Origin: Psilocybe cubensis
Lineage: Eukaryota
Length of the DNA: 64,000 nucleotides
Assembly: GCA_017499595.2 (NCBI GenBank)
Contig: CM039004.1
Coordinates: forward strand, 1,674,001-1,738,000
Direction of reading: 5' to 3'
Both the position numbers and the translations under genes were made by a program. A model generated the notes under the pieces. That model saw only the letters and a program-made list of their open reading frames with translations, ran no database searches and was not told the DNA's origin. This document shows, piece after piece, positions 7,182-41,839 of the stretch (position 1 is its first letter; each line of letters opens with the position of its first letter).

Positions 7182-10100
7182 ATGGATTTACGACCAATCC
7201 AACATCAAGAAGCCACAAGCAGCTCTAGTGCATCTACCACCCATCCTAGCCACAACCAAGACTCATTTTCAAACACGAACTCAGAAAGCAAACCAGTACG
7301 CTCTAGCGCAAGAGTGAAAGCTGCAAAGAACAAAGCTCAAATATCAGCCCAGACCAAAGAGTTTACTTCTATTTCCGAGCAAGGCCCCAGAGCATCTTCA
7401 TCTATCCCCTCTGAAACCATCTCTACACGCAACACACGCGCAAGTCCTGCCAAACCGAATCGTTCCCGTGAAAGCAACTCCAGTAAAGGAAAGGGAAAGG
7501 AGGTTTCTCAAGAATCATCTTCTCGCAGCACTAAACGGTAAGCGCTTTCTACACTTCGTTTACAATATGACACGGCGGTCTGATATTTAATCACTTGGTT
7601 AGTCATCGTCGGAACCCCACATCTACGACAGCGCCTCTTACCATCAACGAACCAATTCGCGATACAAAGGGAAAGAAACGTGCTGCGCCTGAAACTGACG
7701 ACGAAGATTTAACTGCTCCTTCTACCAAACGCATCCGAACATCAGGATATTCTCTCAGATCAAACACATCTTCTGCCAATCCCGCTGATATGCCACGGAA
7801 AGCGCGGTTTGTTATATATCACGTCAACCTTTTGTCTAGCTGCTGACGCTACCTTAGAACATCCACCTCCAAAGGGAAAGCTGCATTGAAATCAAAGATG
7901 GCAGTTGCAAGCTCGTCTCGCCTCGAAACCGAAGATGTTGAAATGCTAGATCCAGATTATACCAACAGCAAGCATGGAGACTCATCGGATCTCGATGAAT
8001 CGATGGAAGAGAAGCACGACATTGAAGGCCAACACGCTGAAGGCGACCAGGATGTAGGCATTGAGGAAGCTAAAGATGATGACGAGGATGAGGACGAGGA
8101 TGAGGACGAGGATGGCGAAGGTGGACACGATGACGAAGCCAGGGTGTCTTCTAGTGACGCAGGTCCCATTCCAGGTGGAATGGATGAAGCAACAGCTTTG
8201 GCCATTTTTGGTGATTACCGCCAATTTGGGTCCTACATGATGTCTCTGTCATCGCGTTTGAAGACCATGCTGAATAACATCAAGCCCACTGCGGATCCTA
8301 CTACCAGGCTTGTTACTCTTCAAGAGTTGAGCGAACTCCTGAGCATCAGTACTGAAGATACCTTGGCCGGATCTTTCCAGGTTGAACAATTTGTTAGGGA
8401 ATTGGTCAAAATTTTAGGAGGTCGCGGTGCGGATGAAGATGAAGAAGAGGACGAGGATCCTCCAGAACGCGACGAAGACGCTGCTCTTGCAGCAGCGCTC
8501 GCTATGAGCTCAGGAGGCACATATCAAGGCGACGATAACCTTGAGGCACAACTTCTTGCTTGCAGGTGCTTGGCAAACCTCATGGAGGCTCTGCCGGGTG
8601 TGGCCCACACCGTCGTTTACCATGGCGCCATCCCTGTTCTTTGCAGCAAACTCATTGAGATTGATTATATTGACCTGGCAGAGCAGACTTTGAGTGTAAG
8701 CGATTTTATTCTTGTTGGTATATGCAAAAATCTCTTATCTACATATATCATGTAGACTTTGGAAAAAATTTCGGAAGAATTCCCAAGTTCCATTGTACGG
8801 GAGGGTGGCTTAGCTGCTTTACTTACCTATGTGGACTTTTTCCCCATAGCATCACAAAGGACAGCTTTGCAGGCTGCATCTAATTGTTGCCGGAATGTGT
8901 CATCGGAACATTTCCCTATGATTCGTGGTGTTTGGCCAAACATTCGTAACTGTCTTGCATATTCCGACCAGCGCCTAGTAGAATATGCTTGCCTTTGCGT
9001 CATCCGAATTGTCGACTCTTATCACCGTTCATCCGTGGAAAATCTGGAATCTTTGATTGATTCAGAACTCATTCGAGCAGTAAATCAACTTCTCCTCCCG
9101 GCTGGGGGGTCGCCTTTGATTGCTTCAAATACGTACACCCTTTTGCTGCGAGCATTAGCGACATCTGCAAAGGCTAGCGCTAAGATAACAGTCGCATTGC
9201 TTGAAGCAGATATAGTTGATACTTTATACCAGATTTTGACCGGAGTTTTGCCATCAGCCTCTCTAAACCATCTTGACCAAGGAGGCGCAGCAGGTGGACA
9301 AGGATTAGGAGGTGGATTGGCCGATATGACGGTCATGGAGAATTTGGCTCATAGACCGAAAGAACAGGTGGAAGAAGCTCTTAGTCTCATCTCTGAGCTA
9401 TTACCCCCTTTACCAAAAGGTAAGCTTTATTCTCCATAAAATACAAAATTCATGCGCTGATCATTAAGCAGACGGTGTCTTCGATCACAAAGCATATACT
9501 GAGAAATCCCTTGCGAAACTTGTGAAGGCGAAAGCCAAGGCAGAGAGAGCAGCAGCCCGCCTCGTAACCCAAGCTCAAACGCCCACAGGTGCCCCCGCAA
9601 CACTTTCATCCACACCTGGTTCCGCCGTACCTACAGATGATGCTTCTCCTGTACCAGGTTCTTCTGAAGTCCCTGTACAAGAGCCCGAAGAAAATAGAGA
9701 GACTTCAGCTGCTCTACCCGGCATAGATGTTGCTCCAGATCGAACAGACATGTTGCGGAGCAAACCTGCAGTAGTTGGCAGATTTATGCAGCTCCTTGTC
9801 CCGATCTTAGTTGACGTCTATGCTGCAAGCGTGATCACACCAGTTAGGATTAAAACATTGACCGGATTACTCAAGGCCGTCAGCTTCCTTGATGCAGATG
9901 GCTTAAAACCTGTTTTAATGGCAAGTTGCAATTTTTATTATTTTGATCATACTGTTGATTTTTTTATAGTTTGTTCCTGTGGCTAGTTTTGCATCCTCCA
10001 TTTTGTCCTCCAAAGACCACCCTTCCCTTGTTATTGGAGCTCTTCAGCTCGTTGACCTATTGTTGGGAAAGCTGCCTTCGCTTTATAAGCCAACATTTCA

Positions 10101-13100
10101 CAGGGAAGGTGTTTTTCACGAAATTGAGACTTTGGCCGAGCGTACCCTTACAACGTCTAAAGCAAAAGCAAAGGATGCTCCGGAATCTGGTGACGATGCA
10201 GCTAGTTCATCCAATGCTCCACCGGCGAGTATCCCTGGATTCAAAAAGTTGTCGTCAACGTCCTTAGATCCAGAAGATGCTATCACTCTAAGAGCCAGGG
10301 TTATCCAATTCAAGTATCTGGCTGATAAGCAAGACATTGATGAGGACGGGGCATTTCAAAGTTTGCGTAACGTCGTTGTTAGGCTTTCTGCTCCCAATTC
10401 ATCGGATCAAGAATATTCTGAAGCCCTTTGGGAACTTGCTGATCTGTTTGCATCCCCCCATACATCTGTCTCAAGTTTTGAGCTACTTCAGAGCGGAGTT
10501 GTCGATGGCCTTTTGCTTTTTGCTACGGATGAAAATCGTTCTGGTATGCACTACTTTTACATGACCTTGTTCTTTTCTAATCGTATATCATCTGCACCAG
10601 TGAGTTTGCAACGGCGGAGGGAGATCCTGCTAGATGCGTTCTCAAGTCGGAAAGTCAAGAATCTCACCGCCAACCAAACACCATTTGCAACCTTAGTCAA
10701 GAAATTACAAGAAAGCTTCACCAGGATGGAATCGTTTGAAGTCATTACTGTAGCACAAAATAGTGATGGTGAGCTACCTATTTTACTTCAATTAACATCC
10801 AACCTGACTAGTTCACTAGATTCCAAACGAAGCTCGCCATCCTTGCTCGCCAGGCAACTTCGATTACGACTGGTAGCAGGAGATGAATCCGATATCCCTA
10901 AGAGTCTACACAACATTGTCGTCTCCATTCATGCTATTGCCACTTTCCAGGCCTTGCATGACTACCTTCGGCCCCGCGTGGCAGGCCATCCTACTGGCGT
11001 TTCCGCAATGTTATCAGCGCTTGCCGCATCAGGATATACTGGGATACCCAAGCTTCCGGGAGATGATAAACCAGTCCTTAGTGCAGCTGCAGAATCGAGT
11101 TCTGCTACTGTGCCATCTACCTCGGGTGTTCAGCGTCGTCGCAGCCAACGCTTGGCCAAGCAGGGTACAAACTCGGCGCCTTCAGACAATGCCATTTCTG
11201 GACCTGAAGAGGGCGTTGCTGCCACAACAGAAAATGCTGTATCAACACTTTCGGAGATCAAGTCTCCTGTCACGGATCCTACATCTTCATCCCTTCCAGT
11301 TGACCCTGCGCCCAGTGAGACGGTCGTCGAATCGGAGCAACTTCATGCAGAATTTACAGATGACGAAGATGAAATTGATGCAGATGTCTTTGAAGATGAA
11401 GTCGATTCCGAAAACCCCATGTCAGAGAAGACCATCACTTTGTCTGTGGTTGAAGGTATGGCATTGATCTGACCTTTTGTCCCAATTCTAATACAACTAC
11501 ACAGAGGGTGGTAAAGTAGAGGCCCAAACGCCAGAAGGTACAAGAGTTGCAACTCCTAATGCCGCCAAAGAAAGTCTATCGGGGATGACTAGGAATAGTA
11601 TCTCAACTCGAGGTTCATACGCCGCTGCCCTGAAAGCCAAACCTACCGACTGGCACCTGGAATTCTCCATGGATGACCACATCTTGCCTTTGGATTTGAC
11701 CATTTATGGAGCGATCCATCAACACGAAATGAGAAAGAAAACAGGAGCAACTCCCCTCAATATGATTTGGCAAGGGGTATATACAATTAAGTTTAAGAAA
11801 GTCTCTGGTCCCGCTCCAACTCCTGAAGGTAGGTTCACCCATAAAAAGCTTCTTTTTCTTCTATTTCTCACTGACTGATGCGTGTAGCTCGTGCAGAAAA
11901 CCCAGACTTCGCAAACAAGAATCGGTCATCTTCGAGCCCTAGTCTTTCTTCTCTCCCCGAAGATGCACCACACACGAAAATTCTCAGACTCCTACGCATG
12001 CTTTGTCACCTAAATACTATCGAGGCTGAGCGGGCGACATTCCCCGCAGACAAGCGAAACCTCCCTGATTCTTCATTTGTCAACAACAAGCTGACAGCCA
12101 AACTTACACGGCAATTAGAGGAGCCAATGATTGTTGCCAGGTTTGTTTTGCATCTATTTTCATTTTGATTCACCCTGACACGTTTTTACTAGTTCCTGTC
12201 TTCCTGATTGGGCTTTGGATTTGCCTCAGCATTTCCCTTTCTTGTTCCCATTCGCCACTCGCTACAACTTCCTTCAATCTACATCATTTGGCTATGCTCG
12301 CTTAATCCTGAAATGGCAGAGTCAACAAAACCGAGGTCAGGATTCATCGAGAAGAGATGATGGGATAGGTTTCCTAGGACGTTTGCAACGTCAAAAAGTC
12401 CGCATATCTCGAAAACATATCCTCGAATCCGCGGTAAAGGTCTTTGAGTTGTATGGGTCCTCTTCATCTATACTCGAAGTTGAATATTTTGAAGAAGTTG
12501 GAACTGGTCTGGGACCGACCCTCGAATTTTACTCTCTGGTATCAAAGGAGTTTGCTCGGAAGGATTTGAAGCTCTGGAGAGACGCAGATAGCTTTGGATC
12601 CGGCGTCTACGTTGTTCATCCAAATGGTCTTTATCCTGCGCCCTTGAGCCGTGAAGACATACTTAACGATGGTGGACAGTGAGTGCTTTTGATTGGACCT
12701 ATGTTTAACTGATCCAATCCAATGAATTTTTAGAAAACGAACTCATATCCTGCGAGTGATTGGCCAGTTTGTTGCCAAAGCAATGTTGGACTCTCGAATA
12801 ATCGATCTGTCGTTCAATAAAGTATTTTTGAAACTTGTATTGGGTGAAGAGGTTCCACTCACCATCGCGACACTCAAAGTAAGCTCTTGATGTCATATTC
12901 ACAGATGCTTTACTTATCGCTTACCTCAGCTTGTCGATCCTGACCTTGCTAACTCGCTTGCCAAAGTGCAAAGCCTGGCTGCTGAAAGCAATGCCATGAA
13001 AGGCAAAGTGAGTATAAATTTAAGGTAGATAATAGTTCTTACTGACATAATTTTCAGCTTGCGCAAAAAGTGGCACAAATTGAGCAAGTAACCGTGGAAG

Positions 13101-13866
13101 ATCTGGCTTTGGACTTCACTATGCCTGGTTATGATATTGAATTGAGGGTGAGACCTTACTTTTAGATGTGGGGAACCAAGCCTAATCAACTCTTAAAAGC
13201 CGGGTGGTCGCAATATACTGGTAACATCTGAAAACGTCAGCGAATATGTCGCGGAGGTTCTCGATGCCATACTCGGGAAGGGTGCTGCTATTCAAGCGAA
13301 AGCTTTCAGGGATGGTTTTTCCAAGGTTTTCCCAATTACCGACCTTCGCGCATTTTCTGCAGATGAGCTCGTTATGCTTTTTGGTAATTCCGAAGAGGAT
13401 TGGAGTGTAGAAAGTATGTTTGGTTTCGCTCAACCTTTTCATCGCATACTCATAAATTCATTTAATCAGCACTTTCCGAGGCCTTGAAAGCTGACCACGG
13501 CTTCAATGTAGACAGCCGCGCCATCCGCGACCTTGTGGAAATCATGTCGGAATATGATCCCAGCACACGGCGTGCTTATCTTCAGTTCATCACTGGAAGC
13601 CCCAAACTTCCGATTGGCGGTGCGTGTTGATACTATACCTATTCCTTCTAGTTGACCAATCCGATCCAGGTTTCCGAGGCCTAAACCCACCGCTTACTGT
13701 GGTTCGCAAACCTCATGAAGCTCCGCTGACTGCAGACGATTATTTGCCCAGTGTCATGACCTGCGTGAACTACCTGAAGCTACCGGAGTATAGCACCAAG
13801 TCGGTCATGAAGGAGAAACTCAAGACAGCAATGTTGGAAGGAGTAGGAAGCTTCCATCTTTCTTAA
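7182..13866 (+). CDS. UFD4: HECT E3 ubiquitin ligase, Ufd4/TRIP12 family
   Basis: The ARM region reads [14 protein letters not shown]...[16 protein letters not shown]. Later exons give [29 protein letters not shown] and [20 protein letters not shown]. The C-terminus is [17 protein letters not shown]...GSFHLS, with the catalytic Cys. Confidence 0.95.
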
Positions 13867-14162
13867 CTCTATACGTAAGACCCACACCCCCATTCAAGCT
13901 TTGTGTATTTCTTGTCGTTAGTTCATTTTTGAATGTAGAACACATCACTCACTCGTACTTAGCCTATAACACTTTCTGCATCACACAATCTCTAAACAAT
14001 TGTAAATTTTTAATATCTGGTATCCGGGTCTGATATGCCCAGTCCCTTATAAGGATGACATAATAAATTGCTCTGTCATGCACCTCCGACTCGGAATTCC
14101 ACCACTCGAGTTGGCCAGCTCTATTCATTTGCTTGTTCTTCCCAAGACCCTCGTAAAATTCC

Positions 14163-14784
14163 ATGTCGAAGCACCATCCAGGTATATTGTGTTACCTTTT
14201 GCAATGAGATTGAACTTTCATTTTCCTAGATTTGATAATGTGCCGTAGGCAACCTGGCGTTGGTGGGTGTACAGCAATAAGTTAACCTGGTTTGCATATA
14301 TCTAATTCTCTCAAACCGCAGCGATAGGGCGTCTTTGTGAAAAGGACGACGGCAAATGGTACGTTAACCTTGGACAGTAACGTGTTAAGGTTGTCACTGA
14401 TTTTCGCCCTGCAAGTCCTGTATGCGACTCATATGTTAGACCAGAGACTCTGGTCCGCATATGCGATGAATGCAATTTTGGTACTTATGGAGGGCGGTGT
14501 ATCATCTGCGGCGGGCCTGGCAAGATCTATAACCATCTATACTCTGTTCACTGGTCACTGAGTATTTTTGGCTCACAGGTATCTCGGACGCATACTATTG
14601 TGCTGAATGCACAAGGTTAGAAAAGGATAGAGATGGCTGTCCCAAAATCGTAAATTTAGGGGCCAGTCGTACGGATCTGTTCTACGAGCGACGTCGACTT
14701 GGAACCAGTGCGTACTGGGTCCTTCTAATCTAATACGTTTTCATTTATCTTTACTGACACTCATTAGATTTTAAGAAAGGTTAG
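14163..14784 (+). CDS. RDS3: SF3b spliceosome subunit Rds3/PHF5A, copy A (C26D variant)
   Basis: Six exons splice to [112 protein letters not shown]. This needs one GC-AG intron at 14520-14578. Confidence 0.9.
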
Positions 14785-15210
14785 GGACTTGGTCATCTGG
14801 CCTAGAAAGGACCAGGGTTTTGAAGGACTGAGAACATTTCTTTCAATCTATGTCACTGGACTAGAAGGATTTCATCATTTCATGCGCACTATCCCTTTGT
14901 CCGCGAGTGTAGTTTGCAAATTCGACGTGGTAACGATATCACAGCGTTAGCTCAGGAAGATAACAGAATGTTTTCGCACTTTTATGTTGTTTGTGCTTGA
15001 GAGTTTTTTATTCAATTCTTGTCAGTATCTTGATTTCTTTTCCTTTTACCCCCTTTTTCCTACGTGTGGTTGACGTCACTGTTTGGTGAGTAAAAACTCT
15101 TGGCGGTATCACCAAATATAGCAAAGGCGCGTTGATGACAAAGACAAAATAGTAATTGAACCAAGTTGTGATCTATCAACTACTTTTGTCGTCTTTCCAC
15201 ATCCTTCACA

Positions 15211-15806
15211 ATGTCGAAACACCATCCCGGTACGTCTTACTATAGTTATAAAATGAATGCAACTGTTGACACTGGAATCTACTGTAGATTTGATAATGTG
15301 CCGCAGGCAGCCAGGAATTGGTGGGTGGATATGTGCTGTTCATATGCCAGTAAGCTAATTTCTCATGTAGCTATTGGTCGTCTTTGTGAAAAGTGTGATG
15401 GGAAATGGTGAGTAGATACTGATTAAATACCATCAAATATTCTTAAGTATATTTGATAGCCCTGTATGTGATTCATATGTTCGGCCAGAGACTTTGGTAC
15501 GAATTTGTGATGAATGCAATTTCGGTACATACGGAGGGCGCTGCATCATCTGCGGCTCACCAGGTACGCCAACAGTACAAACCCCTCTGAACTACGATGA
15601 TGATGATTTTTCTTAGGTATTTCGGATGCGTACTACTGTGCCGAATGTACGAGACTGGAAAAGGATCGTGATGGATGTCCCAAAATCGTGAATCTAGGAG
15701 CAAGTCGGACAGATCTGTTCTATGAGCGGCGTAGATTAGGTGCGTCCTTTCTCGATATTGATCGAAAAACATAGCTCATGTTTTTCCAGGGTTCAAGAAA
15801 GGGTAG
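15211..15806 (+). CDS. RDS3: SF3b spliceosome subunit Rds3/PHF5A, copy B (canonical)
   Basis: Six exons splice to [110 protein letters not shown]. Confidence 0.95.
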
Positions 15807-15939
15807 ATACGTTACGCAAACTCATTGCTCAAAGCATCTCTGCCAATTTGTGCTCCGTATCATATCATTATATTCATACAGCAACTTCTCGCTCTCCGTG
15901 AAGGATACATGAAATGAAGGTACATATTACATAGATATA

Positions 15940-18900
15940 TCATCGATATACGGGATGCGCAAGGACAGGCGGGCTTCCTTCTTGACTGTCAAGATTGGCG
16001 AAGTTCCTGTTCAAGTAACAGTCAGCGGATATAGTAGCCCAGGCAAATTCAATGCTTACTTGAACAACGCCATGTCAACCTACGCACAAGATGAGCGGTT
16101 AAATAAGGAAAGCAATTCAAAAGATATATACTCACGGGAGCCTTCAGAACAAGGAAAACGTGGGTATCATCGTGGGTATCCACCCCTTCGCAGTTGTCGC
16201 ACAGATCGCGAGCGCAATATGCGCAACGGAACCACTCCCCTTCGATACAGGTCATGCAGCGATCACAAATCGCAGAGGGATGTACCAAAGATGCAAGATA
16301 AGCTATCAAGTGCGAACCAAAGTTCAGCAAGGTATAAAATTAAGGTGTAAGTGCGAACGAACCTCTTGGGTCATTAGTTTTAGGTATGTTTGGTGGTGGT
16401 CCCGCTGGCATCTTGTATCTGAAAGAAATACATGTATATCAACCTTGATGATTTTTTTACGGACGTAGAACTTACAGTGGAGGTAGCATTGGAAAAGCGG
16501 ATTGAATAGGGCGAAGAACTGGTCTGGGTAGTTTAAAGAAGATGTGCATCGGGTCATGTATGATATAGGAACGTTTTTCACATTCGGAGCACTGCGCATC
16601 CATTAACTTTAGCTGAATAGAACACAATAAAACACCTTACGAGACTGTACGGCGACGTTAGTGATGGGCAGTGTGCGCATTGGTACCGTACACCAACGAT
16701 CAGCTGAAACCCAATATGTGAGTTAACATAACGCTCGAATAAGGTGAATACTTACATGACCGCAGCCGTTGCAGAACAAACGGTGGTCGTTATGCGAGGA
16801 TTCCCGTGACCCAGAACCGATCATTGTATGTGCATAAGAAGAGATTTCTGATTCTGCTTTAGATCCTGGGAAAGACTGGCCGACATTTGGCCCGTCTCTT
16901 CTCCATAGGTGTAATGCTCTACGGCTAGCATTCTGCAGCTATAAGTACACCAATTATTAGAAACACTGATCATGAATTTCGCATTCTTTCCCTCACCTCA
17001 GCCGTTTCCAGCGGATAAGGTATCTACAACATTTCCTCTGAGATGAGTAAATGGTGGCTTCAAAGACTTGATGAGAGCATCACCTTGATTAAAATATGTG
17101 AAGAATTATGGCCTCCATCTGCAGAGTCTAAATTGCCAGGCAGACCAGCTGATTCGCAATTGGAGCAAATATCTATAGAATCACATATTGCACAATGGAA
17201 CCGTGCTCCGACGATATCAAGCAGGCAGCTGGTAATTGTGAGATATCGCAAAGTACATGAAGCAATTTAACTCACTGTGCACATTTGACACCAGGGTGGG
17301 TTAGAGCTAAGTGAATGAACAATAACCGATCGTAAGAAAACCTAGACACTAGAAGGAGGATACTCACATAGTTCCTCATGAGAATCAGGTAATTCAATTG
17401 AAGGGAAATCAGACCCATCCAGATTTTCCAAAGGCTTGTCGGGCACGATTAGGAAAGCGTGTGACGGGTGTAATTCGTGAACTTGGCTGAGAAAGTCACT
17501 CTGATTCAATCACGGCGTTTTGGGTAATTGAAGGGCTGCGAAAACTGACCTATAACATGCCCGGCATAGGTGCATCTTCGTACAGGAGGCACATTTATAC
17601 CTCTTGTGCTCCGTGACGGCATTACAAGTCGAGCACTCCGACACTTGCGCCTCATCCAGAACTTCAAAACAACATACTGAGACTAACTTTAGAGTGAATT
17701 AACCAGATCAGACATACCAACGTCTTCCCATCCAAGATGACCCCAAACTTTTTCCTGGAACGCATGGCGTAGCTGTCCCTTTTTCGGTGCCGCTCTCCTC
17801 CATTGTGATGCTCTCTGTGCATCATCATGCGACGGTGACATATTACTGACGACGGGAGATGACCCAGGGGCGGCCAGCCCGGATTCAACGGCGTGATAGA
17901 TACCCACCGATTCAAGACAGGCCGAGCATAACTCATATCCGGGCGAACTGACCGCCGTGGGCGACGTCGGCGGGACATTCAGGCGCGTCCTGTCCGTATA
18001 CACGGACGACGCCGGGGGGATCGAAGGCAGGGGTTTGTATCGCTGGGTATCATAGTCCGAGCTGCCCACGTAGGTCTGCGACGAACTCGAATTGGGACTC
18101 GAGAAGAGGGGGTGTGTCGGCTGCACGGGCGGGTATGTGTACATAGTAATCGGAGATGATTCTGTCGCCCTGTCTTTGCCTTTCTCAGAGGTACTTTCAC
18201 CCACCGCAGTTTTTGGGCCGCAAGTCGAGCAGACGTATCTGATGGCGTCCAAGATCGACCCGCAGTTCGAGCAGTCGGTGAGTATGTCTGGTGACGGACC
18301 AGCAATGGGTAAGAAAGGCAAAAGTTCCTTGTCTATGGTGTGGGGGAACCCATTTGTCGCTTCAAGCTCTTCGGCTATAGACATGGGATGTCGCTCGCCA
18401 CGACTTAGTTTCTTGGTTGTATCGACCCTTTGCGAAGCAAGCCAATTGAGTTGCATCGAGGTAGGTCTGTTGTCACGCATGACGCTTCGCACATATGCAT
18501 CCCCTTCGTTGCCGTTCTGAGCGTCGTCGTCGGCGCCAGAGCCTTGGAATTGTGAAGACGATCCAGATGTATAAGTGTAGTAATATTTGCCGCTGGGATC
18601 CCGTTGTAGTGCTAGATCTCCTCCCAATGAATCTTCCTCTTCCTCCGGTTGTGAGCCACCTAGTGAGAACGAGAAGTCATCGGACACAGAAGGTTCTGGG
18701 AGGGCCCCCAACATGGAGCGTATCACCCTTTCATTCTGGTCTCGCAACCACGCAGCCCCTCGTTCGCTTGCACCCAACGAGTCGTAGTTTACACTGGAAG
18801 CATCGTCTTCAGCAAGCTTGAGGCGCTCGAATACTGCAGATGGATCCAATGGATACCGCTCCTCTGCTGCCTCCAACTGAATGTCTTGTGTCAACGAGCT

Positions 18901-19610
18901 CTCAGTACGATTCAATGTCGATGGAATTCGCGAGGAGCCGGATTGACCATTTACTGGGCGATCACCTCCCTTCACCGATGTATGCGGATTATCGGAACCC
19001 ATGAAGCTCTTTTGTTTTGGAATTTGTGGAAGGGCTCGAGAAGGCGCCCCTGACCTCCCTGAGCGCGCTGAAGACGTCCCTGGATCCCTTGAGCTAACAG
19101 TAACCGAGTCATCGTCTAGATCAATAGTCGGTGTGCCAAATGAGAACGATTGTTGACTCGCATTCTTCCCCTTGAACTCCTCCAAACTTGCCAAGGACGA
19201 TGTATCAGAAAGACTGGGTCCATCATACTCCACAGTAATAGTGACCCTCAAAGTGATCTTGCGTGCTCCAAAGCTTCTACCAGATAGTATAGAGGCGGCG
19301 GATGACATCGGTGCGTCGTCCCCAGCTTGGAAGAACTGGATGGCCTCCAAAAGATCTTCATCCGTTGTGATAGATGTGATTTCTCCATCGTCGTCTTTCC
19401 AAGAGACAAGGTACGACGTCGCGTAAAGCGAGAAACATTGTTCTACCTTTAATCGATTGTCAATAGCTTTCTACTGGGTAATGTAATGGAACGCACCTTT
19501 CTTCGAAGTAGATCATATGAGCAATTACGCGCAGAGCTAAAAGTAATCCGTTTATGCCATTTGTCGAATGTGCATTTGACGATAAGCGGTCTGTCAGGGG
19601 GATGGTACAT
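15940..19610 (-). CDS. PB1 domain + multiple ZZ-type zinc finger protein (NBR1/p62-like architecture)
   Basis: The N-terminus MYHPPDRPLIVKCTF...KRITF...VSWKDDDGEITSITTDEDLLEA is PB1-like with an OPCA acidic motif. The C-terminal half has repeated CxxC...RY/FxCxxC...LCxxC...H...H units. Stop TGA at 15940-15942. Confidence 0.85.
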
Positions 19611-39019: not shown

Positions 39020-40122
39020 TTACTTTCCTCCAGTGGTACCCATGCCCATGGAGGCCTTGAAGGAATCATAAATCCACCATTGGAAGCCAGTGAGTGTACC
39101 GATCATAATAACACGAGTACCCAGGCCCTGTGTAGCGAGTTTGACGAATCCGACCTCATTGGCAATCTGTCCAAGTGATTTTCCCTTGTTGGCAGCCTTG
39201 CCGAGCTGTGAAACAAGAGAGTCCGCAGGGTGAGAGACGACGGCACAGACGACACCAGCAAGGTATCCAGATGCGAATGTAATGCCCAGCTGGGTTCCTT
39301 TGTTGTATGTTTCCTTGGGTTCAGTGAACACATGCGTATAGAAAAGCTGGACAATCTTTTCAAAGCAGAAAAACTTGGCCATGGTATATGGAATCTGTGT
39401 GTACATGAATGTGTTAATACTCAACTTGATTGTTGATGAACAAAATTAATTTACCTGACGAGACCAAAGAGGAACAAGAGAACCGAATGGGTATCGGGTT
39501 TCAAGCTTGGTACGTTGCATTTCTCTCAAGGCGGCAACAAAAGGGATAGGAAAGGTACCAGTTGGGCTGGTCTGAATTTTGACTTTGGTCATCTCGAGTG
39601 GGCACAGGGCGATATCAGCGAAGACTTCTGCGGAAGCAGAACCCACTAGCCAAATAGCGGGTTTATATTTCTCGGAAAGCTCCTCTCCGGCCAGATTCAT
39701 GTAGAAATCTTTGAAGATTTCATAAAGACCATATTTGAACATTCCTTGGAGCGAATACCCGACCAAAGTGGGTCCAAAACCCTTCAAAACACCTTTGGAA
39801 CCTTCTTCGGCCACGAGAGTCCTCAGAGATGGGACAAGGCCGTTGTATTTTTTAGGGTCCACCTATTACAGCCAATTGTATACGACAAGATAGAAAACTG
39901 AATGAGATTCATAATTTACCTGCATGTTACATTTGGCAACATCAAGAGGAGTGATGGCTGCATGTGTGATACCACAGGCCAAGGCACCTCCTAACAAGGC
40001 TTTTGCGTAGTAAGAGGAATCATGGGGGACAGGGCCAGCGAATCTGCAGCAGAACGTTGGAAAAGATCGGGAGAAACAGGACTGCACTTCATTTACCTGG
40101 CATCCCATTTCGTAGCAGACAT
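39020..40122 (-). CDS. PIC2: Mitochondrial phosphate carrier (SLC25A3/Pic2-type), copy A
   Basis: MSATKWDAR start, carrier motifs TPLDVAKC, CPLEMTKVK and HPADSLVS, plus GYSLQGMFKYGLYE, LWSRQIPYTMAKF and MIGTLTGFQWWIYDSFK. The C-terminus is closer to Pic2 than to Mir1. Confidence 0.9.
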
Positions 40123-40733
40123 GGCAAGCAGACAGGCAATCTAACAAGTCTATGCACTGAAATGAAAATTGAAGTTAACAGTAGGTCCTATGGGACCAAG
40201 TTTTGGGAGCCTCGAGTAGGTAGGGAAATGTAGGGAAGAAGGATGGATGCCAGATGTACGATGCGAGGTCAAAGCTCGGGGTTGGTTCGGAACGCTGACT
40301 AATGACATTGGTGAGATTTCCGGCCCTGACCATCCCAGCGATGACATGAACAAAAATGCGAATGACACGGTCATGCTCAAAGGGGACACTGCGTGCTTAC
40401 GATGACGTCGATTAATAGTTCACGTACGCAAGACAGATGAGAAGCAGAAAGAGATTATCGTTTAACAGAGCGATCATGCCGGGGCCACCATGGAAGTTGA
40501 ACACTCAGCTCAAGGAATCTTTTTGATTATAAGATTGAGGATATCGTAGAGGGACATGCAATTCTATATGATAGATGGTAAGATAAAACCCAGTAATAGA
40601 AGGCAATAAGTAAGTCTAGAGTCCCTTCATCACGATGAGCATTTATCTACTCCCAGACTTATTCGATGCATAAGCAATAAGCAGACAAGACAGTAAGATA
40701 GATACTCACATCATTGGGTAACAAAAGTTCCGT

Positions 40734-41839
40734 TTACTTTCCACCAGTGGTGCCCATACCCATGGCAGCCTTGAATGAATCATAGATCCACCATTGGAAG
40801 CCAGTGAGAGTACCAATCATGATAACACGAGTACCGAGACCCTTTGTGGCGAGACCAACGTAGCCAACCTCTCCGACGATCTGACCAATAGACTTGCCCT
40901 TGTTGCTGGCCTTTCCGAGTTGAGAGACGAGGGAATCAGCGGGGTGGGAGACGATAGCGCAAACAACACCGGCGAGGTAACCAGAAGCGAATGTGACTCC
41001 GAGCTGAGTGCCCTTGTTATAGGTTTCCTTGGGCTCGGTGAAGACATGAGTGTAGAAGAGCTGGACGATCTTTTCGAAGAAGAAGAACTTGGCCATGGTG
41101 TAAGGAATCTAGAAGAAGCAGAAAAAAGTTAGCAACTGTCGATGACCGCAAATTGGGAACGCATACTTGACGGGACCAAAGAGGAACGAGGGAGCCGAAG
41201 GGGAAGCGGGTCTCGAGCTTGGTGCGGTTCATCTCCTTGATAGCGGCGCCGAACGAGGTGGGGAAAGTACCGTTAGCACTGGTCTGAATCTTGACCTTGG
41301 CCATCTCAAGAGGGCAGAGAGCGATATCAGCGAAGACTTCAGCAGAGGCGGAACCAGCCAACCAGATAGCGGGTTTGTACTTGTTAGAAAGCTCCTCGCC
41401 GGCCAAGTTCATGTAGTAATCCTTGAAGACTTCGTAGAGACCATACTTGAACATTCCCTGGAGAGAGTAGCCGACGAAAGTAGGACCGAAACCCTTCCAG
41501 ATTCCTTTGGAACCTTCCTCGGCGACGAGGGTCTTGAGGGAAGGAATAAGACCGTTGTATTTTTGGGGGTTGACCTGGTGAAGAGAAACTTGAGAACGGG
41601 GCCCAAAAATGTGTGTTGATAGATGGATTACCTGCATGTTGCACTTGGCAACATCAAGAGGGGTGATGCCGGCGTGTGTCACACCGCAGGCGAGGACACC
41701 ACCAAGCATACACTTGGAGTAGTAGGCAAGGTCGTGGGGCACAGGCCCGAGATTTCTGGTTCACGGGTGGTTAGAAGGAGAAGAGGAAGACTGTACTAGG
41801 AAAAAGGAAATACCTAGCGTCCCACTTGACTGCAGACAT
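40734..41839 (-). CDS. PIC2: Mitochondrial phosphate carrier (SLC25A3/Pic2-type), copy B
   Basis: MSAVKWDAR start, with the same motifs and the same three intron positions as copy A. Codon usage is strongly C/G-ending. Confidence 0.92.

Follow-up and report, generated by a model that had tools for sequence, protein, structure and literature searches.

A tandem Asp26 paralogue of the spliceosomal PHF5A/Rds3 gene in Psilocybe cubensis: a possible zinc-retaining isoform without the reactive Cys26 thiolate

The protein known as PHF5A in humans, Rds3 in Saccharomyces cerevisiae and Ini1 in Schizosaccharomyces pombe is among the most conserved proteins of the spliceosome. Here, we present an analysis of two adjacent genes for this SF3b protein, which we refer to as copy A and copy B, in a stretch of 64,000 nucleotides from Psilocybe cubensis (GCA_017499595.2, contig CM039004.1, positions 1,674,001 to 1,738,000 of the forward strand; hereafter, the window). 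Copy B encodes the canonical protein, while copy A has an Asp codon in place of the codon for the zinc-ligand Cys26. The residue is of interest because one class of compounds, pursued both for cancer therapy and as bioherbicide, attaches covalently to Cys26.

Cys26 is one of the four cysteines of a zinc cluster, and an epoxide carbon of spliceostatin A and of sudemycin D6 forms a thioether with it (Cretu et al. 2021, PMC8302644). On adduct formation, the zinc is not ejected, and the free position is filled by water (PMC8302644). In the same study, the SF3B core with PHF5A-C26H showed a dramatic loss of spliceostatin A and sudemycin D6 binding, and HCT116 cells over-expressing C26H withstood spliceostatin A at concentrations several orders of magnitude higher while responding normally to pladienolide B (PMC8302644). 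A preprint describes the Zn-Cys26 bond as the distorted, elongated and exchangeable one and assigns K29 and D34 to a proton relay for the Cys26 reaction (10.1101/2025.09.17.676740). According to a review of zinc fingers, the ligands of structural zinc are Cys, His and, occasionally, Asp only (PMC7614390). Rice has two PHF5A genes, OsPHF5A1 and OsPHF5A2, encoding identical proteins, and rice over-expressing PHF5A-Y36C tolerates the SF3b inhibitor GEX1A alongside the wild-type genes (PMC8100303). The producers of spliceostatin-type compounds are soil Burkholderia (PMC10589681, PMC8472923), and, on Arabidopsis, the phytotoxic spliceostatin C has an IC50 of 2.2 uM (PMC9878571). Our literature searches yielded no paper that mentions PHF5A together with C26D and, among the matches listed, no PHF5A paper for Asp26, D26 or Cys26Asp, while C26H occurs in two papers only; ortholog alignments in supplements could show natural variants.

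The two genes in the window are intact, lie on the + strand and consist of six exons each, with both reading frames open (Table 1). A previous sequence-only reading of this DNA had described a tandem pair about 430 bp apart with common intron positions and unrelated intron sequences, and this description holds: 426 bp separate the stop codon of copy A from the ATG of copy B, the five introns (48-60 nt) split identical codons in both copies except at the last donor of copy A, and outside the exons (introns and flanks), the two loci align by scattered identity alone. The same reading had located the GAC and TGT codons for position 26 exactly, and it had correctly attributed the gain of two residues in copy A to a shifted donor. 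Compared with copy B, this donor (GTGCGT) is displaced by 6 nt in the 3' direction and adds Thr-Asn before the C-terminal FKKG. In addition, copy A has a GC donor at intron 4, where copy B has GT at the same position; this donor and the substitutions I17V and S63G had been overlooked.

Based on its profile score, its ligand pattern and its pocket residues, copy A is assigned to the PHF5A/Rds3 family. Exons 4 and 5 score 47.0 and 60.5 bits, respectively, against the PF03660 (PHF5) profile in copy A, and 47.5 and 60.7 bits in copy B (cut-off 26.7). At the 12 ligand positions (11, 23, 26, 30, 33, 46, 49, 58, 61, 72, 75 and 85), copy B has 12 Cys and copy A has 11 Cys and Asp26, and a residue predicted to be capable of ligating metal is, therefore, present at all 12 positions of copy A. 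The residues K29, D34, Y36 and R38 of the pocket for the branch-site adenosine and the inhibitors are kept in both copies. The PDB chains of human PHF5A align gap-free over residues 1-110, so that position 26 of the window proteins corresponds to human Cys26, which agrees with the previous statement that this position is a zinc-ligand Cys in the human protein (ligand role per PMC8302644).

The two copies differ at 53 of the 110 aligned codons, and only three of these differences change the residue (A/B: V/I at position 17, D/C at position 26 and G/S at position 63). Using the Nei-Gojobori method, we counted 54 differences at 74 synonymous sites (pS 0.73, saturated) and 7 differences at 256 non-synonymous sites (pN 0.027), which gives a dN/dS of ~0.01. 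The copy B protein is identical to other agaricomycete PHF5 proteins, with an identical row shared with P0211 and zero distance to P0078, a cluster representative named from Taiwanofungus camphoratus, arguing that all protein changes occurred on the branch of copy A. Altogether, these data bear out three suggestions of the sequence-only reading, i.e., that the proteins are near-identical despite many synonymous differences, that the duplication is old, and that both copies are under selection. The best named matches to the PHF5 proteins of the window all come from Agaricomycetes. Moreover, the GC content at third codon positions (GC3) is alike in copy A (0.44) and copy B (0.42) and, thus, a foreign origin of copy A is not indicated.

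Two runs of one study, X1 and X2, were taken as transcript assemblies; their records have no RNA label, and we read them as transcripts because their contigs lack the introns that are kept in DNA runs. The DNA runs X3 and X5, from another study of the same organism, span the stretch in one piece with the introns retained. X1 and X2 each contain one copy A contig that lacks all five introns, with removal at the predicted borders. In these contigs, the GC-AG intron is spliced out (joint 14518>14578, also compatible with a position 2 nt downstream), and the shifted donor is used (joint 14707>14768, GT..AG). For copy B, all five splice joints are seen in X1 and three are seen in X2. Positions 14955-15108 of the spacer have zero cover in X1 and X2 and full cover in the DNA runs. 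The Asp26 codon is free of variants in all four runs, and all seven differences between runs and window fall outside the two coding sequences (CDS). We conclude that both genes are transcribed and spliced as modelled and that copy A is an old, expressed and constrained paralogue. Accordingly, neither of the two signs by which the sequence-only reading had proposed to recognize a decaying copy, i.e., missing spliced transcripts or a dN/dS near 1, is seen for copy A. In our assessment, it is very probable that copy A is a functional, selected paralogue.

Table 1. Positions of the two PHF5A/Rds3 genes and their distinguishing features in the window
Feature	Position	Strand	Remarks
Transcribed span of copy A	14066..14930	+	5' end 14066 in X2, 14084 in X1; 3' end 14930
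Copy A coding region	14163..14784	+	six exons, CDS 339 nt, 112 aa, PHF5A/Rds3 paralogue with Asp26
Copy A exons	14163-14181, 14230-14262, 14322-14358, 14416-14519, 14579-14707, 14768-14784	+	
Val17 codon GTT, copy A	14259..14261	+	Ile is the canonical residue
Asp26 codon GAC, copy A	14345..14347	+	replaces zinc-ligand Cys26
Gly63 codon GGG, copy A	14513..14515	+	Ser in the canonical agaricomycete protein
Intron 4 of copy A	14520..14578	+	GC-AG intron, donor gcaaga
Exon 5 end of copy A	14704..14707	+	ACC (Thr) and first base of Asn codon added
Intergenic spacer, 426 bp	14785..15210	.	between copy A stop and copy B ATG
Copy B coding region	15211..15806	+	six exons, CDS 333 nt, 110 aa
Copy B exons	15211-15229, 15288-15320, 15371-15407, 15460-15563, 15617-15739, 15790-15806	+	
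Cys26 codon TGT, copy B	15394..15396	+	

To determine how position 26 behaves elsewhere, we compared a canonical protein with 1.84 billion cluster representatives using phmmer. At E <= 0.001, there were 1399 matches, of which the best 150 were used; two unspliced fragments were left out, and the sample consists of 149 PHF5 domains from 148 of these 150 representatives. Among the 147 domains that cover position 26, 135 have Cys, 12 have Asp and none has any other residue. Of the other 11 ligand cysteines, nine are invariant in this sample of the best 150 of 1399 matches, while C61D occurs twice and C11F once. The carriers of C61D (P0264 and P0267) are animal-like PHF5A representatives; in the human structure, C61 and C26 coordinate the same zinc ion, and Asp is found at no ligand position besides 26 and 61. 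Because the representatives stand for clusters at 90% identity, an Asp26 copy with 95-99% identity to a Cys26 protein disappears within its cluster and, consequently, the number of named agaricomycetes with an A-type gene is not readable from these searches.

Asp26 forms were found in very different settings. In the fused plant gene models of Dovyalis caffra (P0001) and Escallonia herrerae (P0002), a PHF5 unit with EKDDGK is followed by a unit with EKCDGK; thus, the Asp copy lies directly upstream of the Cys copy in the window, in Dovyalis and in Escallonia. The sequence-only reading had asked whether Asp26 is a common neutral variant among single-copy fungal orthologues. Our data bear this out in part, in that Asp26 recurs widely. 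Apart from one His, Asp is the only replacement seen at this position, and the Asp copy adjoins a Cys copy in all three cases with a visible neighbourhood. Several plant-like Asp26 sequences are near-identical to named plant proteins. Four of the plant-like sequences (P0001, P0280, P0295 and P0310) have Y36L, and all of these but P0001 have R38H too; overall, Y36 is changed in 5 of 17 Asp26 genes vs 7 of 73, but these rows are not independent, and we did not use the difference as evidence. Among fungus-like forms, P0258 groups with named smut-fungus relatives, without strong support, and P0195, P0270 and P0355 are more distant. P0170 was considered as an agaricomycete orthologue of copy A based on a shared intron-derived FRPASP and was dropped because its exon 4 was found to match P0258, the smut-like Asp26 protein. 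A 'PHD finger-like domain-containing protein 5B' of Leucoagaricus sp. SymC.cos (P0184) has His26 together with K29C and S35V. Finally, of the three PHF5 proteins of Hydnum rufescens (P0173, P0191 and P0118), one is canonical and the other two are partial and degenerate.

Metagenome contigs were scanned with one degenerate pattern written for Asp26, which can detect Asp only and gives no frequency information. All 15 loci retrieved hold real PHF5 genes with Asp26. Apart from a group of ten that we return to below, they comprise three genes of a two-intron type, one partial gene (L002) and one gene of basidiomycete type (L004). L004 has an open frame, the same five intron positions as the genes in the window, Asp26, Gly63, Y36S and further changes; used as a protein query, its exon 5 has one exact relative only among the cluster representatives (P0204). 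In a tree of 85 sequences with column 26 masked, 12 Cys/Asp changes are needed, of which only two are forced by well-supported branches. Judged by lineage-typical residues, there are Asp26 forms among plant-like and animal-like sequences and in two or more basidiomycete-like groups, which makes several origins likely. The pS between copy A and L004 is 0.99 vs 0.73 between copy A and copy B, which, with sites being saturated, argues weakly that Asp26 in copy A and in L004 arose separately rather than from a shared ancient Asp copy.

How can an almost invariant zinc ligand be replaced in a gene that is otherwise under strong constraint? We tentatively favour the reading that copy A encodes a working PHF5A isoform that retains zinc, is devoid of the reactive thiolate and therefore tolerates covalent SF3b inhibitors, and we regard this reading as quite possible, if somewhat short of probable. 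According to this model, copy A would be a second working SF3b PHF5A/Rds3 gene next to the canonical copy B, and strong purifying selection acts on it. In its zinc site, one of three, Cys26 is the labile ligand, and epoxides of the FR901464/spliceostatin type attach covalently to its thiolate. Asp26 would still ligate the structural zinc while offering no thiolate, and the copy A protein would enter SF3b and, with K29, D34, Y36 and R38 of the pocket retained, would be expected to work normally there. SF3b with Asp26 PHF5A would then escape trapping by electrophiles directed at Cys26. Resistant PHF5A is dominant beside the wild-type protein in human cells (PMC8302644) and, as Y36C, in rice (PMC8100303), suggesting that one added gene copy may be enough for tolerance. 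The predicted copy A protein lacks the Cys26 thiol (GAC at 14345-14347) and, in this feature, equals target-site-resistant PHF5A of the C26H type.

The pattern of substitution at position 26 is informative in this context. A change from Cys (TGY) to Asp (GAY) requires two base changes and passes through Gly or Tyr, and neither of these nor any other one-step residue occurs at position 26 in the 147 domains, compared with Asp in 12. The recurrence of Asp, the single His and the lack of intermediates argue that position 26 must keep a metal ligand. That the loss of the reactive thiolate is what selection keeps is possible as well, although we hold this with slightly more reserve than the reading as a whole. 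It is possible, though less likely than not, that PHF5A with Asp26 or His26 represents convergent natural target-site resistance to the covalent spliceosome poisons of soil Burkholderia (spliceostatin/FR901464/thailanstatin), a resistance that evolved repeatedly in fungi, plants and soil animals and in most cases through an additional gene copy.

The sequence-only reading had connected copy A to inhibitor sensitivity and to branch-point choice. The connection to inhibitors stands insofar as position 26 bears on them; however, the class concerned is the covalent one of FR901464, spliceostatin and sudemycin rather than that of pladienolide, given that C26H cells are described as remaining sensitive to pladienolide B (PMC8302644). 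For an altered branch-point choice, we find no pointer in the sequence because K29, D34, Y36 and R38 are unchanged in copy A. That Cys26 is the very residue alkylated by the epoxides of spliceostatin, FR901464 and sudemycin (PMC8302644) had been missed.

Several observations weigh against an isoform selected for inhibitor tolerance. Asp26 is present in many lineages, and exchange may simply be tolerated at this one ligand position; the Asp26 protein P0254, for instance, differs from human PHF5A in just 3 out of 110 residues. Sensitivity to the inhibitors depends on a permissive SF3B1 pocket too, and wild-type baker's yeast is described as insensitive for that reason (PMC10798247). The matches listed in our literature searches included no report of spliceostatin action on fungi. 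The transcript evidence consists of assembled contigs from a single study, and the RNA label of X1 and X2 is a guess. Ten of the 15 metagenome loci share one identical coding sequence (intronless, plant-type), and the scan sought Asp only. The tree has little resolution (1 of 80 inner branches starred) and, therefore, the count of independent origins is uncertain. Finally, a degenerate copy in Hydnum rufescens has Asp26 together with C30Y and C85R, indicating that Asp26 copies are not always kept.

The main rival explanation is that the ligand swap is nearly neutral. According to this explanation, Cys26 is the weakest ligand, a redundant duplicate drifted to Asp, and the two copies are kept for dosage or expression, while inhibitors are irrelevant. 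We regard this as a serious possibility that nevertheless falls clearly short of probable. Positions 26 and 61 vary to other metal ligands only, as pure structural constraint would give, an elongated, exchangeable bond between zinc and Cys26 has been described (10.1101/2025.09.17.676740), and Asp26 occurs in very different lineages, including an animal-like protein. Moreover, the rice PHF5A pair with identical proteins indicates that duplicates persist without change (PMC8100303). On the other hand, drift would have to take the two-step path from Cys to Asp without any intermediates being seen, and to do so for the Asp that we count 12 times in 147 domains; the pattern is more readily understood if Asp is favoured once the change starts. 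In addition, nine other ligand cysteines are invariant in the same sample.

An isoform that is robust to oxidation or to endogenous electrophiles, e.g., during oxidative decay of wood or litter, rather than to one class of bacterial toxins, appears improbable to us. It would build on the activated Cys26, the most nucleophilic sulfur of the site (PMC8302644, 10.1101/2025.09.17.676740), and other modifications of the reactive centre are described, such as acetylation of K29 under stress (10.1101/2025.09.17.676740). However, we found no in vivo data on oxidation of the Cys26 site, and the mechanism overlaps with that of the inhibitor-tolerant isoform, from which it differs in the selective agent alone.

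That copy A is decaying and non-functional, or has been recruited to a role outside the spliceosome, is very unlikely. The non-canonical GC donor, the two-residue insertion and the degenerate Asp26 copy in Hydnum would fit such a fate; however, decay is contradicted by the intact open reading frame (ORF) and by the removal of all introns, including the GC-AG intron, from the transcripts, and three substitutions against a background of saturated synonymous change, with all pocket residues kept, argue against either fate. Resistant duplicates of target genes are known to sit next to biosynthetic clusters in fungi, but a self-resistance copy in a fungus that itself makes an SF3b-directed metabolite is the least credible explanation, as the window has no polyketide synthase, non-ribosomal peptide synthetase, terpene cyclase or P450 by Pfam at E <= 1e-5 (300 of 302 stop-to-stop ORFs of >=70 aa scanned; the two omitted ORFs lie in the last 253 bases), which weakens the idea of biosynthetic genes next to the resistant target. 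Rather, the neighbours in the window are housekeeping genes, among them those for a TRIP12-like HECT ligase, ribosomal protein S4e, mitochondrial carriers and Leo1.

Some features of the neighbourhood are of note in their own right. The gene for the TRIP12-like HECT ubiquitin ligase (7847-13866, + strand; PF25579, PF00632) ends ~300 bp upstream of copy A, which makes it a potential anchor for synteny. Two sets of mitochondrial carrier (PF00153) ORFs on the minus strand (39023-40174 and 40737-41760) may be another tandem pair. The 3' end of copy B converges on a minus-strand gene (15806-16340 region), which has a Cys-rich ORF at 16052-16339 with no Pfam match and a weak PB1 match at 17692-19470 (E 6e-4). 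An intron of the minus strand (16006-16058, CT..AC on the + strand) is spliced in the contig of copy B, suggesting that the transcripts of both genes overlap or that the assembler merged them.

Altogether, the gene pair is solidly established as real and selected, while a role of copy A in resistance is what we infer from its composition. If an inhibitor-tolerant isoform is correct, copy A is a likely natural resistance allele that is relevant to spliceostatin-type herbicides and to resistance in therapy, and Asp26 would be a sequence marker of organisms exposed to such toxins. In any case, copy A offers a natural test of whether the spliceosome works with Asp at the Cys26 zinc site. Should the recurrence of Asp26 and His26 truly reflect convergent resistance, evolution would have repeatedly hit the same residue that chemists found by crystallography.

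Compared with canonical PHF5A, Rds3 and Ini1, copy A is alike in its PF03660 domain, in 11 of the 12 ligand cysteines, and in K29, D34, Y36 and R38; it is unlike them in having Asp26, in having Thr-Asn before the C-terminal FKKG, and in being a second gene beside the canonical one. The pair as such resembles OsPHF5A1 and OsPHF5A2 of rice in that two genes are retained; however, the rice proteins are identical, while those of the window differ at a zinc ligand. PHF5A-Y36C, which was described by Teng et al. in 2017 (PMC5458519) and in rice (PMC8100303), provides a precedent for a resistant allele that works beside the wild-type protein. Y36C sits in the pocket and is reported to affect pladienolide, herboxidiene and spliceostatin alike (PMC5458519). 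Because copy A keeps Y36, it should, unlike Y36C, affect the covalent class only. Some other Asp26 genes do change Y36, which is a known site of pladienolide and herboxidiene resistance, i.e., L004 with Y36S and four plant-like sequences with Y36L. The closest engineered parallel to copy A is PHF5A-C26H, in which the Cys26 thiol is likewise swapped for another metal-ligating side chain (PMC8302644), and which has a natural counterpart in the His26 protein of Leucoagaricus sp. SymC.cos. Copy A differs from C26H in that it has Asp rather than His and in that it is natural, with the likeness being readable at the level of sequence only.

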